Assembly: GCA_934167305.1 (NCBI GenBank)
Contig: CAKPKQ010000001.1
Span: forward strand, 7,159-71,158
DNA length: 64,000 nucleotides
Origin: an uncultured Clostridia bacterium
Lineage (GTDB): Bacteria; Bacillota; Clostridia; TANB77; CAG-508
Direction: 5' to 3'
Shown: in pieces, positions 47,508 to 58,757 of the stretch
Numbering within the stretch: the stretch's first letter is position 1
Layout of the letters: the number at the start of each line of letters is the position of its first letter
The notes under the pieces: generated by a model
The model's input: the letters and a program-made list of their open reading frames with translations, nothing else
Told to the model about the DNA's origin: nothing
Databases searched by the model: none
Translations under genes and position numbers: made by a program

Positions 47508-47632
47508 GTTCGAAAAATAATTGCCATTCTGCGTCGTTAGAATTCATTTGAAACGCGGTTACATACAAACGTATGCGCCCTTGCCTTTCAAATAAATTCT
47601 GCCTAGCATAATAACAATTTTTTTCAAACTAG
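47508..47632. repeat. long-palindrome (MITE-like) intergenic repeat, copy 1 (between rplW and rplB)
   Basis: About 125 nt: ttcgaaaaataattgccattctgcgtcgttagaattcatttgaaacgcggtta-CATACAAACGTATG-cgcccttgcctttcaaataaattctgcctagcataataacaatttttttcaaa. Arms are imperfect inverted repeats. Near-identical copies at 56573 and 58584, a shorter one at 52722. Confidence 0.75.
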
Positions 47633-47787
47633 AAAATTAAAAATTATTAGAAACTTAAAATTATCGGGAAGTAACCCCGGAAAATAAATAAATATCCGTA
47701 TGCGGAGCGGGAAAATATCCGTAAATATAGTAATATAAAATTTATCAAAAACGAAGTTTTTCATAAATTTTGAGAAAGGAAATTAAA

Positions 47788-48615
47788 ATGGGAATAAAAA
47801 GATTCAGACCATATACTCCATCAAGAAGAAACATGACAGTTTCAACATTTGATGAAATTACAAAAAAAGAACCAGAAAAAACTCTATTAGCTACTAAAAA
47901 GAAAAATGCTGGTAGAAATTCATATGGTAGAATTACAGTAAGACATCAAGGTGGAGGAAACAGACAAAAATATAGAATTATAGATTTTAAAAGAAATAAA
48001 GTTGATATGCCAGCAACTGTAGTTGGTATAGAATATGATCCAAACAGAAGCGCAAATATAGCTTTAATTCAATATGAAGACGGAGAAAAAGCATATATTT
48101 TAGCACCAGTTGGATTAAAAGATGGAGATAAAGTAGTTTCTGGAGATAAAGCAGATATTAAACCAGGTAACTGCATGAAAATTGAAAACATTCCAGTAGG
48201 TACAATGATTCATAATATTGAATTAAACCCTGGTCAAGGGGGAAAATTAGTTAGAGCTGCTGGTCAAGAAGCTCAATTAATGGCTAAAGAAGGAAAATAT
48301 GCACATGTAAGATTACCTTCTGGCGAAATGAGATTAGTAATGGCTGTATGTAAAGCTACAATAGGAACAGTTGGAAATACAGACCATGAAAACATTAAAT
48401 TAGGTAAAGCTGGTAGAACAAGACATATGGGAATTAGACCAACTGTTAGAGGTTCTGTAATGAACCCAGTAGATCACCCTCATGGTGGTGGTGAAGGTAA
48501 AGCTCCAGTTGGACACGCAGGACCAATGACTCCTTGGGGTAAACCAGCATTAGGATATAAGACAAGAAAGAAAAACAAAAAGAGTGATAAAATGATCACT
48601 AAACGTAGAAAGTAG
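47788..48615 (+). CDS. rplB: 50S ribosomal protein L2
   Basis: [14 protein letters not shown]... Start ATG 47788 with GAAAGGA RBS. The ORF track starts at 47770. Confidence 0.95.
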
Positions 48616-48627
48616 GAGGTAAAATAA

Positions 48628-48906
48628 ATGTCAAGATCAAGTAAAAAAGTTCCATTTATTGCACCTGAATTATTAAAAAGAGTTAATGCAATGAATGAAA
48701 GTGGAAATAAAGAAGTAATAAAAACATGGTCAAGAGCTTCTACTATATACCCACAAATGGTTGGACACACAATAGCTGTTCATGATGGTAGAAAACATGT
48801 ACCTGTATATATTACAGAGGAAATGATTGGACATAAGTTAGGTGAATTTGCACCAACAAGAACATTTAAAGGTCACGCAGGAGATAAAACAACAACTAAC
48901 AAATAA
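48628..48906 (+). CDS. rpsS: 30S ribosomal protein S19
   Basis: Sequence and order. Confidence 0.95.
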
Positions 48907-48923
48907 TGAAAGGAGATAATAAA

Positions 48924-49277
48924 ATGGAGGAAAATAATATTCCAACAGCAGAAGCAACTCTAAGATATGCTAGAATTTCAGCTAGAAAAGTTAAAATAGT
49001 AGCAGACTTAATTAGAGGAAAAGATGTTGATGAAGCTTTAGCTATTGCAAAATATGCTCCAAAAGCATCAAGCGAAATTATTGAAAAATTATTGAAATCA
49101 GCTATTGCAAATGCTGAAAACAATCACCATATGGCACATGAAAAATTATATGTTGCTGAAATTTATGCAAATCAAGGTCCAACTCTAAAAAGAATTAGAC
49201 CAGCTGCAAAAGGTAGTGCAGTTAGAATTAGAAAAAGAACAAGTCATATTACAATCGTATTAAAGGAAAGAGATTAA
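48924..49277 (+). CDS. rplV: 50S ribosomal protein L22
   Basis: [32 protein letters not shown]... ATG 48924 has AAAGGAG at 8 nt. Confidence 0.9.
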
Positions 49278-49296
49278 GAAAGGAGGACTTAACAAA

Positions 49297-49959
49297 ATGG
49301 GACAAAAAATGGATCCTAACGGATTAAGAGTAGGAATTATTAAAGACTGGAATTCAAAATGGTATGCAGATAAAAAGAATTTTAGTGATTACCTAGTTGA
49401 AGATCATAAAATCCGTGAATATGTTAAGAAAAAATTATACATTGCAGGAATTTCTAAAGTTGAAATTGAAAGAACTGCAAAATTCGTTAAAGTAAACGTT
49501 TATACAGCAAAACCAGGTTTAGTAATTGGTAAAGGCGGAAACCTTGCTGAAGAATTAAAAGCTGAGCTTGAAAAAATGATAGGTAAAACAGTTAACTTAA
49601 ATATTGTTGAAGTTAAAAACATAGATGTTGATGCACAATTAGTTGCTGAAAACATTGCAGGACAACTAGAAAGAAGAATTTCATTCAGAAGAGCTATGAA
49701 ACAATGTATGCAAAAAACTATGAAAGCAGGTGCTTTAGGTATTAAAACTGCTGTATCTGGTAGATTAGGTGGAGCAGACATGGCTAGAACAGAGTTCTAC
49801 AAAGAAGGAACAATTCCACTTCAAACTTTAAGAGCTGATATTGATTATGGATTTGCAGAAGCAGATACAACTTATGGAAAAATCGGTGTTAAAGTTTGGA
49901 TATATAAAGGCGAAGTTCTTCCAGCTAAGAAAAAACAAGCAGAAGGGAGAGATGAGTAA
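49297..49959 (+). CDS. rpsC: 30S ribosomal protein S3
   Basis: Sequence and order. Confidence 0.95.
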
Positions 49960-56572: not shown

Positions 56573-56697
56573 TTTGAAAAATAATTGCCATTCTGCTTCG
56601 TTAGAATTCATTTGAAACGCGGTTACAACCCAAAAGGTTGCGCCCTTGCCTTTCAAATAAATTCTGCCTTGCATAATAACAATTCTTTTCCAAATTG
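56573..56697. repeat. intergenic palindromic repeat, copy 3 (between secY and adk)
   Basis: Matches copy 1 over about 120 nt, except the central hairpin is CAACCCAAAAGGTTG in place of CATACAAACGTATG. The changes are compensatory and preserve a 5-bp stem. Confidence 0.75.
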
Positions 56698-56814
56698 GAT
56701 TGTAGAGAAAATAAAAAATAATAAATAAGATATATTTTTAAAATTAGGGCAGATGGGGCGGACAGGTGTAAAAACTGGTTCCGTCCGTAATGCGTGAAGG
56801 GAGAACTAAAAACT

Positions 56815-57477
56815 ATGTATATTATTATGTTAGGAGCTCCAGGAAGTGGAAAAGGAACAACAGCTAAAATTTTAGCTAAAAAAACAAACTTGCCTCATAT
56901 TTCAACAGGAGATATGTTTAGAGAGCAAATAAAAAAAGAAACAGAACTTGGAAAATTGGCTAATAGCTATATATCACAAGGAAAACTAGTGCCAGATGAA
57001 GTAACAATTAATATCGTAAAAGATAGATTAAATTGGGATGATACTAAAAATGGTGTAATATTAGATGGATTTCCAAGAACAATTGAGCAAGCTAAAGCTT
57101 TAGATGAAATACTAAAAGAAAAAGGTAAAAAAGTAGATATAGTACCTGAATTAGTAGTTCCAGATCAAATCATTGTAGAAAGAATTTTAAATAGAGCAAC
57201 ATGTTCAAATAAAGAATGTGGAGCAATTTATAATACAAAATTCAAACCATCAAAAGTTGAAGGAATATGTGATATTTGTGGATCAGAGCTTGTTACAAGA
57301 ACTGATGACACAGAAGAAGCAATTAAAACCAGACTAGAAGTTTATAGAGAAAACTCAAAAGACTTAATAGATTATTATAAAGAAAAAGGAGTTTTAGTGA
57401 ATATAACTCCAAATGATCCAACTGCAGATAATGCATCAGAACAAGCAGTTGATATTATATTAGAAAAAGCAAATTGA
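56815..57477 (+). CDS. adk: adenylate kinase
   Basis: MYIIMLGAPGSGKGT P-loop. Lid domain with the C-x2-C...C-x2-C zinc motif (CSNKECG...CDICGSEL). The ORF track starts at the upstream GTG 56794. Confidence 0.95.
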   Translation: MYIIMLGAPGSGKGTTAKILAKKTNLPHISTGDMFREQIKKETELGKLANSYISQGKLVPDEVTINIVKDRLNWDDTKNGVILDGFPRTIEQAKALDEILKEKGKKVDIVPELVVPDQIIVERILNRATCSNKECGAIYNTKFKPSKVEGICDICGSELVTRTDDTEEAIKTRLEVYRENSKDLIDYYKEKGVLVNITPNDPTADNASEQAVDIILEKAN

Positions 57478-57495
57478 TGTAAAGAGGTAATAAAA

Positions 57496-58272
57496 GTGGT
57501 AACAATCAAATCACAAAAAGAAATTGAAAAAATGCGAGAAGCATGCAAGCTTACTGCTTTAGTATATGAAGAAATAGAGAAATATATAAAGCCAGGAATT
57601 ACAACAATGGATTTAGATAATTTTGCAGAAAAAATTATTAGAGAACATGGAGGAATTCCAGCACAAAAAGGGTATCCAAGTGGAGAAAAAGGAGTTCCTG
57701 CATTTCCTGGAACATTATGTATTTCTATAAATGATGAAATTATACATGGAATTCCATCTAAAAGAACAATAATTAAAGATGGAGATGTAGTAAGTGTAGA
57801 TTTAGTAGTATATAAAAATGGATTTAATGGTGATGCAGCAAGGACTTTTATTGTTGGTAAAAGTTCACCAGAAAAGCAAAAACTAGTTGACATTACTAAA
57901 CAAGCATTTTTTGAAGGAATAAAATATGCCAAAAAAGGAAATCGTGTGGGAGATATTTCTCATGCTATTGGAGAATTCGTAGAAAAAAACGGTTATAATG
58001 TAGTAAGAGAATTTCAAGGACATGGAATTGGAGAAGAAATGCATGAAGATCCTGGAATTCCAAACTATGGAAAAGCAGGTAGAGGAATAAGGCTAGAACC
58101 AGGCATGACTCTAGCAATAGAACCAATGGTAATGATAGGAAAACCTAATATTTGTATACTAGATGATGGATGGACTATTGTTACCGAAGATGGATCTTTG
58201 GCAGCACACTATGAAAATACTATTTTAATTACAGAAAAAGAGCCAGAGATATTGACATTATTGCAAAAATAA
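57496..58272 (+). CDS. map: type I methionine aminopeptidase
   Basis: GTG start after AAAGAGGT. Metal-binding residues in DVVSVD...GFNGD, HGIGEEMHE and LAIEPM. Confidence 0.9.
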   Translation: MVTIKSQKEIEKMREACKLTALVYEEIEKYIKPGITTMDLDNFAEKIIREHGGIPAQKGYPSGEKGVPAFPGTLCISINDEIIHGIPSKRTIIKDGDVVSVDLVVYKNGFNGDAARTFIVGKSSPEKQKLVDITKQAFFEGIKYAKKGNRVGDISHAIGEFVEKNGYNVVREFQGHGIGEEMHEDPGIPNYGKAGRGIRLEPGMTLAIEPMVMIGKPNICILDDGWTIVTEDGSLAAHYENTILITEKEPEILTLLQK

Positions 58273-58364
58273 GATATACTATATAAGATATTGTACATAT
58301 GTACAAATGGAAAAATTATCTAAGTTTTTAACGATAATTTATTCAAGAAAAAATGGAGGAAAAT

Positions 58365-58583
58365 ATGTCAAAAGAGGATGTTATAGAAGTTGAAGGTACT
58401 GTTGTAGAAGCATTACCAAATACTAATTTTAAAGTAGAATTAGAAAATGGACATCAAATCTTAGCTCATATTTCTGGAAAATTAAGAATGAATTATATTA
58501 AAATTCTTCCAGGAGATAAAGTAAAAGTTGAATTATCGCCTTATGATCTTAGTAAGGGTCGTATTACATGGCGTGCTAAATAA
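58365..58583 (+). CDS. infA: translation initiation factor IF-1
   Basis: [73 protein letters not shown] 58365 has GGAGG at 5 to 6 nt. Confidence 0.95.
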
Positions 58584-58757
58584 TTTGAAAAATAATCGCC
58601 ATTTGGCGGTGTCAAAAGTCATAAAAAACGCAGTCAGCTACTGCATACTGATGCTGTAACAGGCAAAGCCTTAACAGCCTCAGCAACATACACAAAGTAT
58701 GCTCCTTTGCCTTTTTTATAACTTTTTCCTAGCCAAATAACAATTCTTTTCCAAATT
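58584..58757. repeat. intergenic palindromic repeat, copy 4 (between infA and rpmJ), longer variant
   Basis: Ends match the family (tttgaaaaataatcgccatttggcg ... cctagccaaataacaattcttttccaaatt). Central hairpin CATACACAAAGTATG. Carries about 50 nt of extra internal sequence. Confidence 0.6.

Follow-up and report, generated by a model that had tools for sequence, protein, structure and literature searches.

Interspersed palindromic repeats in bacteria are normally lineage-specific. Several of them are intergenic palindromes transcribed within operons, including ERIC/IRU (approximately 127 bp, enterobacteria), Correia/NEMIS (Neisseria), RUP/BOX (pneumococcus) and bcr1 (Bacillus cereus), and effects on mRNA processing or stability have been proposed for them. 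Other structured DNA elements include integron attC sites, which span 57-141 nt and are broadly distributed, and the hairpins of IS200/IS605 insertion sequences, which are acted on as single-stranded DNA. Here we describe a family of long, imperfect hairpin repeats in the S10-spc-alpha ribosomal-protein operon of an uncultured Clostridia bacterium of the CAG-508 lineage, within a 64,000-nt stretch of DNA (contig CAKPKQ010000001.1, positions 7,159 to 71,158; hereafter, the window), and trace the same structured core in at least 12 phyla.

Repetitive extragenic palindromes (REPs) are 20-40 bp in length and carry a GTAG or CGTC tag, and a REPIN consists of two inverted REPs around a variable spacer (PMC3733652; bioRxiv 10.1101/2021.07.10.451892). 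REPINs are extragenic, persist vertically and depend on a single-copy HUH (RAYT) gene elsewhere in the genome, itself mostly bordered by the repeats (bioRxiv 10.1101/2021.07.10.451892). The MRSC-65-2 family has a single long stem with strong covariation and is represented more than 20,000 times across diverse phyla (Narunsky et al. 2024, PMC11109978); it occurs in dozens of copies per genome, possibly acts as DNA and has a repeated UYCCGG as its hallmark (PMC11109978). We give a probability of about one half to the reading that the spacers of the operon carry repeats of approximately 130 nt from an ancient and large family of hairpins that spans phyla, is non-coding and non-autonomous and is REP/REPIN-like in being spread or exchanged via a single-stranded hairpin of the mRNA-complementary strand, and that these copies are passively transcribed here.

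A structured repeat in an operon and across phyla

An earlier note, made from the letters of the window, had placed five related elements in widened junctions of the operon. All five are present essentially where it put them, each on the + (mRNA-sense) strand (c1 to c5, Table 1), and the arm sequences and apical compensatory changes that it quoted (CATAC/GTATG versus CAACC/GGTTG) are correct. Copies c1 and c3 are 91% identical, rather than approximately 95% as it had estimated, and the other pairs in the window share 58-73% identity. Each copy starts 0-5 nt past the stop codon of the upstream gene and forms a single unbranched hairpin, with z-scores against dinucleotide shuffles of -4.3 to -5.7 for the sense strand and -6.5 to -9.8 for the reverse complement. 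Neither an nhmmer profile nor a covariance model found a comparable copy in the other approximately 50 kb of the window, and the rplF/rplR junction of the window has none.

Table 1 The operon and the hairpin-family members and fragments within it (positions count from the first letter of the window; E, expectation value)
Feature	Position	Strand	Setting	Model match	Fold, sense / reverse complement (kcal/mol)
S10-spc-alpha operon	45.3-62.1 kb	+	rpsJ to rplQ		
c1 (A-type)	47504-47634	+	rplW/rplB spacer; P1 begins 5 nt past rplW stop	Direct repeat families D1/D3; covariance model 85.9 bits, E=5e-22	-34.1 / -53.2
c1 5' core CTGCGTCGTTA	47529-47539	+			
c1 3' core TGCCTAGCAT	47600-47609	+			
Outer-stem-only hairpin TATAAAATTTATCAAAAAC-GAA-GTTTTTCATAAATTTTGAG	47734-47774	.	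Directly 5' of rplB Shine-Dalgarno	Covariance model fits both P1 arms, 92 interior positions deleted; 17.6 bits, E=0.003, both strands	
c5 (B-type, diverged core CTGGCGTTGTTG ... CGCCTAGCC)	50856-50974	+	rpsQ/rplN spacer; flush with rpsQ stop	Covariance model 44.5 bits, E=6e-10	-36 / -44
5'-arm remnant, 27 nt (TTATAAACTGCGTCTTGCGCTGTCAAG)	52477-52503	+	rplE/rpsN spacer; remainder of copy deleted	Weak nhmmer match	
c2	52716-52843	+	Flush with rpsN stop; cores 52739-52749, 52809-52818	Covariance model 91.1 bits	-33 / -43
c3 (A-type, U/U variant of covarying loop pair)	56573-56699	+	Flush with secY stop	Covariance model 73.1 bits	-37 / -54
c4 (diverged core TTGGCGGTGTCA ... TTCCTAGCC; with nested insert)	58584-58762	+	Flush with infA stop	nhmmer E=1e-28	-47.8 / -74.7
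Mini-hairpin, 48 nt (CTACTGCATACTGATGCTGTAACAGGCAAAGCCTTAACAGCCTCAGCA)	58638-58685	+	Nested directly 5' of c4 apical stem; accounts for extra length of c4		

The outer stem (P1) is approximately 22 bp long, with pairing over 22-23 positions, and is variable in sequence, with an A4/T4 tract at positions 9-12. Inside it lies a conserved asymmetric module that reads, in the mRNA sense, CAT-CTGC-K-TC-GTTA ... TGCC-T-W-GCAT-CT. It comprises a tandem mismatch, a stretch of 3 bp, a 3x3 loop with a covarying first pair, a stretch of 2 bp and a bulge. When the 3' core is reverse-complemented (CAGATGCWAGGCA), it differs from the 5' core (CATCTGCKTCGTTA). Above the module are a variable stem (P2) of approximately 10-15 bp, a second small loop (GCTCA / CTCCGC) and an apical stem of 5 bp (YRTAC/GTAYR) with a variable loop.

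The proposal of a repeat family of long imperfect palindromes is therefore borne out, and the stem covariation that the earlier note had seen in the apical hairpin is real and much stronger than it first appeared. Over 24 alignable pairs in 96 non-identical copies, 86.7% of cells are paired, compared with 59.6% in column shuffles and 36-44% when the partners are slid. Changes on both sides of a pair number 673 cells versus 231 in the shuffles, and none of 500 shuffles reaches 673. At most stem positions, each of the four Watson-Crick pair types is represented, at several of them in comparable numbers, and the first position of the 3x3 loop (K/W) covaries in a non-canonical manner (G/A 57, T/T 48, G/T 9 and T/A 2). 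Because variable lengths prevented column-wise alignment of P2/P3 (MAFFT/RNAalifold), this part of the structure is supported by the single unbranched fold of each copy and not by column counts.

We scanned one genome per species, from 185,579 species, for the pattern CTGCKTCGTTA-N45-75-TGCCTWGCAT and found at least 119 loci in at least 12 phyla (loci are labelled L###); by our own estimate, which assumes uniform base composition, a few tens of pattern matches would be expected by chance. A covariance-model match is present in 95 of the first 100 loci listed, approximately 95% of the loci listed share one common architecture, and many of them have multiple copies. Among the matches listed, carriers in the Bacillota are Listeria sensu lato, gut Clostridia and Negativicutes, and Proteobacterial carriers are Gammaproteobacteria (Pseudomonas, Legionella, Kangiella and Porticoccus) and Alphaproteobacteria. 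The same matches include Desulfobacterota, Bdellovibrionota, Bacteroidota, Chlorobiota (Chlorobium), Actinomycetota, Acidobacteriota, Verrucomicrobiota/Victivallales, Omnitrophota and Patescibacteria (Saccharibacteria, Paceibacteria and Peribacteria). Listeria rocourtiae, Listeria grandensis, Pelosinus, Kangiella and Pseudomonas sp. 8AS (NZ_LR733406.1) are among the carriers that can be cultivated.

Some members have unusual surroundings. Head-to-tail tandem arrays with a period of approximately 133 nt occur in a Brumimicrobium metagenome-assembled genome (MAG; five matches, L075 1915-2706) and in L119 (two matches, 1429-1690). In Chlorobium MAGs (L005, L017, L024, L045, L053 and L079), the basal module forms part of a longer, dispersed repeat (approximately 330 nt) with 13-bp inverted repeats (CCTAAAYTGAGCG) at its ends and three CCCGAC-N4-GTCGGG hairpins inside. 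In Veillonellaceae/Massilibacillus (Negativicutes; L011, L013, L031, L043 and L098), the hairpin lies inside a conserved unit of approximately 235 nt, found at several loci and in several species, with 85 nt conserved on one side that include the palindromes TTGTCGACAA and GATTTAGAAAAYATCTAAATC. Some Ruminococcaceae copies differ in their apical part. Because the copies of these three groups vary in context or apical part, the basal module is the invariant element of the family.

A reverse-orientation copy in Pelosinus sp. (L027 5040-5240) lies in a 23S-5S-5S-tRNA cluster and directly abuts a 5S gene from which the first approximately 38 nt are missing; this assembly is collapsed, with Ns and duplicated segments. 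We rejected kinship with 5S rRNA: Rfam identifies intact 5S genes close by, the element lies outside them, and we put the contact down to chance insertion within an rRNA-tRNA cluster.

The repeat family is real and structured, and apparently undescribed. Searches against Rfam 15 covered the window and 25 loci, GC-balanced copies included: nothing reached the gathering threshold, and at E<=10 only unrelated sub-threshold matches came up. In the literature, the core strings match only unrelated primers, and keyword searches returned the REP/REPIN papers and MRSC-65-2. The same pattern run against 2.9 million viral contigs gave a single match, in a conserved coding segment and without a hairpin; we consider this a coding-sequence coincidence and rejected a phage or viral origin.

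Strand asymmetry and turnover

The strand complementary to the mRNA is the better folder. With RNA parameters, the reverse complement of the mRNA-sense strand is more stable in 112 of 121 copies (mean advantage, 9.6 kcal/mol), and with DNA parameters it is more stable in 110 of 118; all five copies in the window conform (Table 1). The complement folds better because the G·U pairs and tandem G·A mismatches sit there: the alignment has 215 G·U pairs on the reverse-complement strand versus 74 on the sense strand, and the complement has a tandem 5'-GA/3'-AG adjoining the core, together with other purine-rich loops. In a strand-neutral fold-back alignment, the isolated P1 mismatches of the sense strand are 168 of the A·C type versus 38 of the G·T type. 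The sense strand is pyrimidine-rich, with C>G in 112 of 118 copies, and its unpaired positions are pyrimidines. The asymmetry persists when the conserved loops are excluded.

Mutation bias does not account for this pattern, as cytosine deamination on the non-template or lagging-template strand would give G·T mismatches on the sense strand, the opposite of the data. Because the known deamination biases predict the opposite asymmetry, we infer that it reflects selection rather than mutation. The earlier note had read the covariation as selection on RNA or DNA secondary structure; a simple selected RNA structure within the polycistronic mRNA is disfavoured because the mRNA complement folds better.

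We followed the history of the copies in a site table of ten related contigs, fetched via IF1, and three genome loci. Relatives have copies after rpsJ, rplW, rpmC, rpsQ, rplN, rplE, rpsN, rplF, secY and infA, in varying combinations. Clostridium sp. CAG:508 (L019), the ribosomal proteins of which are 93-100% identical to those of the window, has them after rpsQ, rplN, rplE, rpsN and rplF. Near-identical orthologues of c1 and c2 occur in L064 and L019 (97.6% for c1 in L064; 95% for c2 in Clostridium sp. CAG:508), c5 is 100% identical in L129, and c4 has orthologues in L129-L138 that lack the nested insert. As relatives including Clostridium sp. CAG:508 are occupied at the same junctions, the copies are mostly old and orthologous among related species. 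The proposal that they are insertions in the spacers thus needs qualification: most are not recent arrivals, although copies have been lost, replaced and invaded in individual strains.

The suggestion of an element that targets this operon also holds in part. In the closest relatives, 60 of 60 covariance-model matches are sense-oriented and within the operon, and within the lineage all copies in the DNA that we examined are inside it; however, its core is also found outside this setting, at unrelated loci of at least 12 phyla.

Turnover among strains includes clean loss, partial deletion and P1-only stubs. In L130-L133, the rpsQ/rplN junction is empty, with a clean 14-nt spacer in which TAA is directly followed by AGGAGG. 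We rejected the reading of this allele as ancestral and of the filled site as a fresh insertion; loss is likelier because Clostridium sp. CAG:508 is occupied there. Another relative (L023) has a copy at the adjacent rpmC/rpsQ junction instead. The 27-nt remnant in the rplE/rpsN spacer corresponds to a full copy in L129, L137 and Clostridium sp. CAG:508, and the truncated spacer of 53 nt is identical in the window and L130. The outer-stem-only hairpin upstream of rplB is probably what is left of a second, inverted copy after collapse; in L023, a complete second copy, also inverted, occupies the matching place. Opposite-orientation copies occur in L025 at rplW/rplB and rpsJ/rplC.

Alleles have also been exchanged. 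Copy c3 is 91% identical to c1 and 92% identical to a copy at an unrelated locus (L143), and only 65% identical to the copy at the same secY/adk junction in relatives; because c3 is closer to copies at unrelated loci than to its positional orthologue, the identities indicate that it replaced an earlier copy there. A-type copies at three different loci are 91-92% identical. At rpsN/rpsH, two alleles are 71% identical (c2 and the allele of L130/L134), with flanking genes that are more than 95% identical.

Three further spacers of the window are widened to 190-220 nt and contain long hairpins: rpsJ/rplC (45696-45885), rplN/rplX (51386-51605) and rpmJ/rpsM (58918-59118). The family model does not recognize the hairpins at these three junctions, apart from a weak 8.5-bit match at 51434-51505. 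True members of the family occupy rplN/rplX in relatives and rpsJ/rplC in L025. Because relatives carry true copies at such junctions, the three hairpins may be decayed or replaced family members. Clusters of small GC-rich hairpins lie in the AT-rich spacers 3' of c1 and c3 and 5' of rplB and adk (47664-47730 and 56748-56806; for example, CGGGAAGTAACCCCG and GGGCGGACAGG...CCGTCCGTAATGCG), without a match in Rfam.

The nested mini-hairpin of c4 occurs once in the window. In a scan of gut metagenomes, we found nearly the same sequence in 18 contigs, hosted by approximately seven different elements of differing subfamilies and loci. Its orientation is constant, its site is mostly directly 5' of the apical stem (between GCGGTT and ACATAC), and no target duplication is visible at its junctions. 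This is the clearest sign of ongoing insertion in this system, orientation-specific and largely site-specific, although short-patch conversion between copies might account for it. The mini-hairpin would be a rare case of a bacterial repeat aimed at another repeat.

Gene ends and competing explanations

Under the REP/REPIN-like reading, copies would be made or exchanged through a single-stranded hairpin folded from the complement of the flanking gene's mRNA, and the conserved loop module would be recognized by a trans-acting factor, presumably an enzyme, encoded elsewhere. New or replacing copies would land directly at the 3' end of a gene. The copies in this operon would be long-standing residents, passively transcribed as intercistronic hairpins that start at the stop codon, with possible effects on mRNA processing, stability or translational coupling, and the smaller 48-nt hairpin would in turn invade them.

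Several findings sit uneasily with this reading. The first is the precision of placement. Among the 66 copies with an open reading frame (ORF) of at least 60 codons ending no more than 60 nt upstream, the stop codon lies 18-25 nt before the core in 41, with a mode of 22 nt (13 cases); P1 is equally long, so the base of the hairpin abuts the stop codon. Two copies lie 1-2 nt past tRNA genes, in the same orientation. Copies are enriched after genes for ribosomal proteins (for example, L11, L31, S14, L23 and L25) and other highly expressed or abundant proteins. We know of no DNA transposition chemistry that explains such exact placement at gene ends, and the placement and the orientation bias would be compatible, too, with a role linked to the upstream transcript. 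The second concerns the module itself. At one invariant core pair, the sense strand has U·G where the reverse complement has C·A, and a core of approximately 25 nt that is kept across phyla, unlike the lineage-specific REP, REPIN and MITE (miniature inverted-repeat transposable element) families, is more typical of a target of universal machinery. The third is mobility. We found no mobilizing enzyme in the neighbourhoods of 8-20 kb that were read around each copy, and we caught no unambiguous de novo insertion of the main element: the polymorphisms in the lineage of the window are best read as losses or replacements, because Clostridium sp. CAG:508 and other species are occupied at the same junctions.

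Abutment on the stop codon is found at operon ends with convergent neighbours and inside operons alike, and in young subfamilies too, including a delta-proteobacterial type in which TAG is followed by CAGGCTG and the A-type copies of the window and L143. Where an upstream ORF could be called, it is on the same strand as the copy in 71 cases versus 21 on the opposite strand. The downstream side of the copies has no comparable precision, and the upstream and neighbouring genes are mutually unrelated housekeeping genes. In Saccharibacteria (L033) and Paceibacteria (L102), copies that follow rpmE have a P1 that overlaps the last 2-5 codons of L31, the Lys codons of which give the A-tract, such that the 3' arm is complementary to coding sequence.

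The element may instead be a host-useful RNA module that acts in cis on the sense strand, a portable 3'-end or intercistronic element that starts at the stop codon and spreads through its usefulness. It might be a terminator or attenuator (using the inner stem and the T-tract in the 3' arm), a Rho loading site (through its pyrimidine-rich loops, with C>G), an RNase III site or a block to 3' exonucleases, and would set the relative expression or stability of operon segments. We regard this as the main rival, a serious one although less probable than the REP/REPIN-like reading. Co-orientation with the upstream gene in approximately 78% of copies, hairpin bases flush with stop codons and tRNA 3' ends, and the enrichment of ribosomal-protein and abundant-protein genes upstream all favour it. 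In the lineage of the window, the uniform sense orientation (60 of 60 matches) within the most highly expressed operon and the occupation of the same junctions across species point the same way, as do the A4/T4 tract fixed at P1 positions 9-12, the excess of C over G on the sense strand (112 of 118 copies) and sense hairpins that are still significantly stable (z about -5).

The cis-acting module is harder to reconcile with a reverse complement that folds better in more than 90% of copies, having the G·U pairs and the tandem G·A on its side, and with the approximately 20% of copies in the opposite orientation, including those of L025 at rplW/rplB and rpsJ/rplC. Clean losses (TAA followed by AGGAGG) or stubs in close relatives also argue against it, because they imply that individual copies are dispensable, and a generic hairpin role leaves the 25-nt cross-phylum loop module unexplained. 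As for termination, the full hairpin has no T-run behind it: the T4 is paired with the A4 at positions 9-12 of the 3' arm, inside P1, and a simple terminator scan does not call the elements.

Placement also prompts a more radical thought, which we hold to be unlikely: the family could be a new kind of cross-phylum mobile hairpin that is put, in one orientation, precisely where a functional gene ends at its 3' side (its stop codon or, in a tRNA gene, the final base), or the module could be the binding site of a near-universal factor and mark a new class of 3'-end signal. A mobile hairpin of this kind would require a mechanism that 'reads' gene ends, perhaps by priming on, or ligating to, the 3' ends of RNAs and then copying back into DNA, or alternatively by single-strand insertion directed by the conserved loop module. 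The 48-nt mini-hairpin would then be a second-order parasite that homes into the apical loop.

The strand asymmetry raises the further idea that the copies are small RNA genes in their own right, encoded opposite the flanking gene, with a well-folded, purine-rich hairpin as the product that acts in trans or binds a protein. As RNA, the reverse-complement strand is indeed favoured by its G·U pairs and tandem G·A; the Negativicutes unit of approximately 235 nt has 85 nt conserved 5' of the hairpin on that strand, and the well-folding strand of the Pelosinus copy (L027) is co-directional with its rRNA-tRNA operon. However, the lineage of the window would need five to eight antisense genes in a ribosomal-protein operon, the repeat unit stops at the hairpin base without a common promoter, and the flanks of Listeria and delta-proteobacterial copies are not conserved. 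Promoter-like sites number 67 versus 78 expected. We rejected antisense promoters, given no enrichment of promoter-like sites and no conserved flank outside the Negativicutes, and consider small RNA genes improbable.

On the REP/REPIN-like reading or any other, the family has kept one loop module of approximately 25 nt in groups as far apart as Listeria, Patescibacteria, Chlorobium and Pseudomonas, and its copies abut stop codons and the ends of tRNA genes. This suggests either a very widespread trans-acting partner, an enzyme or an RNA- or DNA-binding protein, or an overlooked general 3'-end signal. The elements inflate ribosomal-protein operons, notably in reduced gut Clostridia and Patescibacteria (candidate phyla radiation). 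The two motifs and the covariance model provide a searchable tool with which hundreds of unexplained long spacers could be annotated; the model could also serve to find the partner by phylogenetic profiling and to test whether hairpins at stop codons tune translation termination, operon polarity or mRNA decay.

Elsewhere in the window, a sub-threshold match to the S10-Clostridia ribosomal leader (45117-45213; 22.7 bits versus a gathering score of 35.1) lies downstream of a strong promoter-like site (45079-45107) and is plausibly the real leader of the operon. The gap between rpsE and rplO is 47 nt (54762-54810), so there is no rpmD (L30) gene between the two here. A second, unrelated family of hairpin repeats occurs in intergenic sequence of another cluster (11492-11559, 19091-19193, 20059-20116 and 21505-21562), in spacers of co-directional genes, with units such as TGTCAGTTCGGGGACGTTTCTTTAACTGACA in both orientations and a period of approximately 35 nt.

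Comparison with known repeat systems

The earlier note had called the elements MITE-like, a description that does not survive. Conserved terminal inverted repeats are absent: the P1 arms covary freely and differ among copies, and the conserved parts are the internal loops. Among 138 loci, there is no insertion sequence with matching ends. The one clean filled/empty pair, at rpsQ/rplN (TAA ... AGGAGG), has no target-site duplication, with an ambiguity of at most 1 nt. All-versus-all clustering of the ORFs in the 119 loci listed, with Pfam annotation of the recurrent clusters, revealed no transposase or integrase that recurs; the recurrent families are confined to ABC ATPases, aminoacyl-tRNA synthetases, two-component proteins and UvrB.

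The family shares with ERIC/IRU, Correia/NEMIS, RUP/BOX and bcr1 a length of approximately 100-150 nt, a long imperfect hairpin and co-transcription in operon spacers. Compared on general knowledge of their size and distribution, those repeats are confined to a genus or family and have conserved termini, and Correia elements have a TA duplication, unlike the elements described here. To our knowledge, none of them has been reported flush with stop codons or common to several phyla.

The ends of IS200/IS605 elements and of their non-autonomous derivatives, palindrome-associated transposable elements (PATEs), resemble the family in being strand-specific imperfect hairpins that insert in one orientation without target duplication. 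However, they insert 3' of a fixed tetra- or pentanucleotide and have two different subterminal hairpins, whereas no common target besides the stop codon or tRNA end is visible here, and neither tnpA nor tnpB occurs in the neighbourhoods that were read.

MRSC-65-2 is similar in its single long stem with strong covariation and its presence in diverse phyla. Two UYCCGG motifs are found in 0 of 118 copies and one in 11 of 118; because the repeated motif is lacking, the family described here is a different one.

The layout is close to that of the integron attC site: a hairpin of approximately 60-140 nt that folds better on the bottom strand, with conserved unpaired features and variable stems, at or overlapping the stop codon of the preceding gene and oriented like that gene. 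The elements could thus be recombination sites of a single-strand-specific, site-specific recombinase, an idea that gains from the gene-less tandem arrays (L075), the allele swaps at a fixed site and the lack of visible target duplication. We nevertheless consider it very improbable, and take the better-folding bottom strand and the position directly after an ORF as resemblance only. The R''/R' boxes (RYYYAAC ... GTTRRRY) are absent at the hairpin base, where the outer stems are unrelated between subfamilies (GCAGGCTG.../TTTGAAAAA.../CCCAGCGGG...), and the sole conserved GTT lies 22 nt inside the 5' arm. A crossover in the core would mispair the variable P1 arms, no integrase is found in the neighbourhoods, and there is no cassette behaviour: ribosomal-protein operons keep their universal gene order, and the copies lie in such operons in Bacillota and Patescibacteria, in which integrons are rare.

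The REP/REPIN-like reading, which we prefer, also has its differences from the model systems. Two inverted copies of one short palindrome were not found, and neither conserved half-site is the inverse of the other. A CGTC tag occurs only in the K=G variant, which accounts for approximately 55% of copies. The conserved part is an internal-loop module approximately 22 bp inside a variable stem, unlike in REPs, and the core is common to at least 12 phyla, whereas REPs are lineage-specific. By analogy, the element nevertheless behaves most like REP/REPIN-type repeats, with a layout that resembles attC. As in REPs, bacterial interspersed mosaic elements (BIMEs) and REPIN-RAYT systems, the palindromes are extragenic and mostly 3' of genes, one strand is set apart by mismatches, and no target duplication is seen. 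As in REPIN-RAYT systems, in which the HUH (Y1) enzyme is encoded by a single-copy gene elsewhere, copies persist vertically for long periods at orthologous sites.

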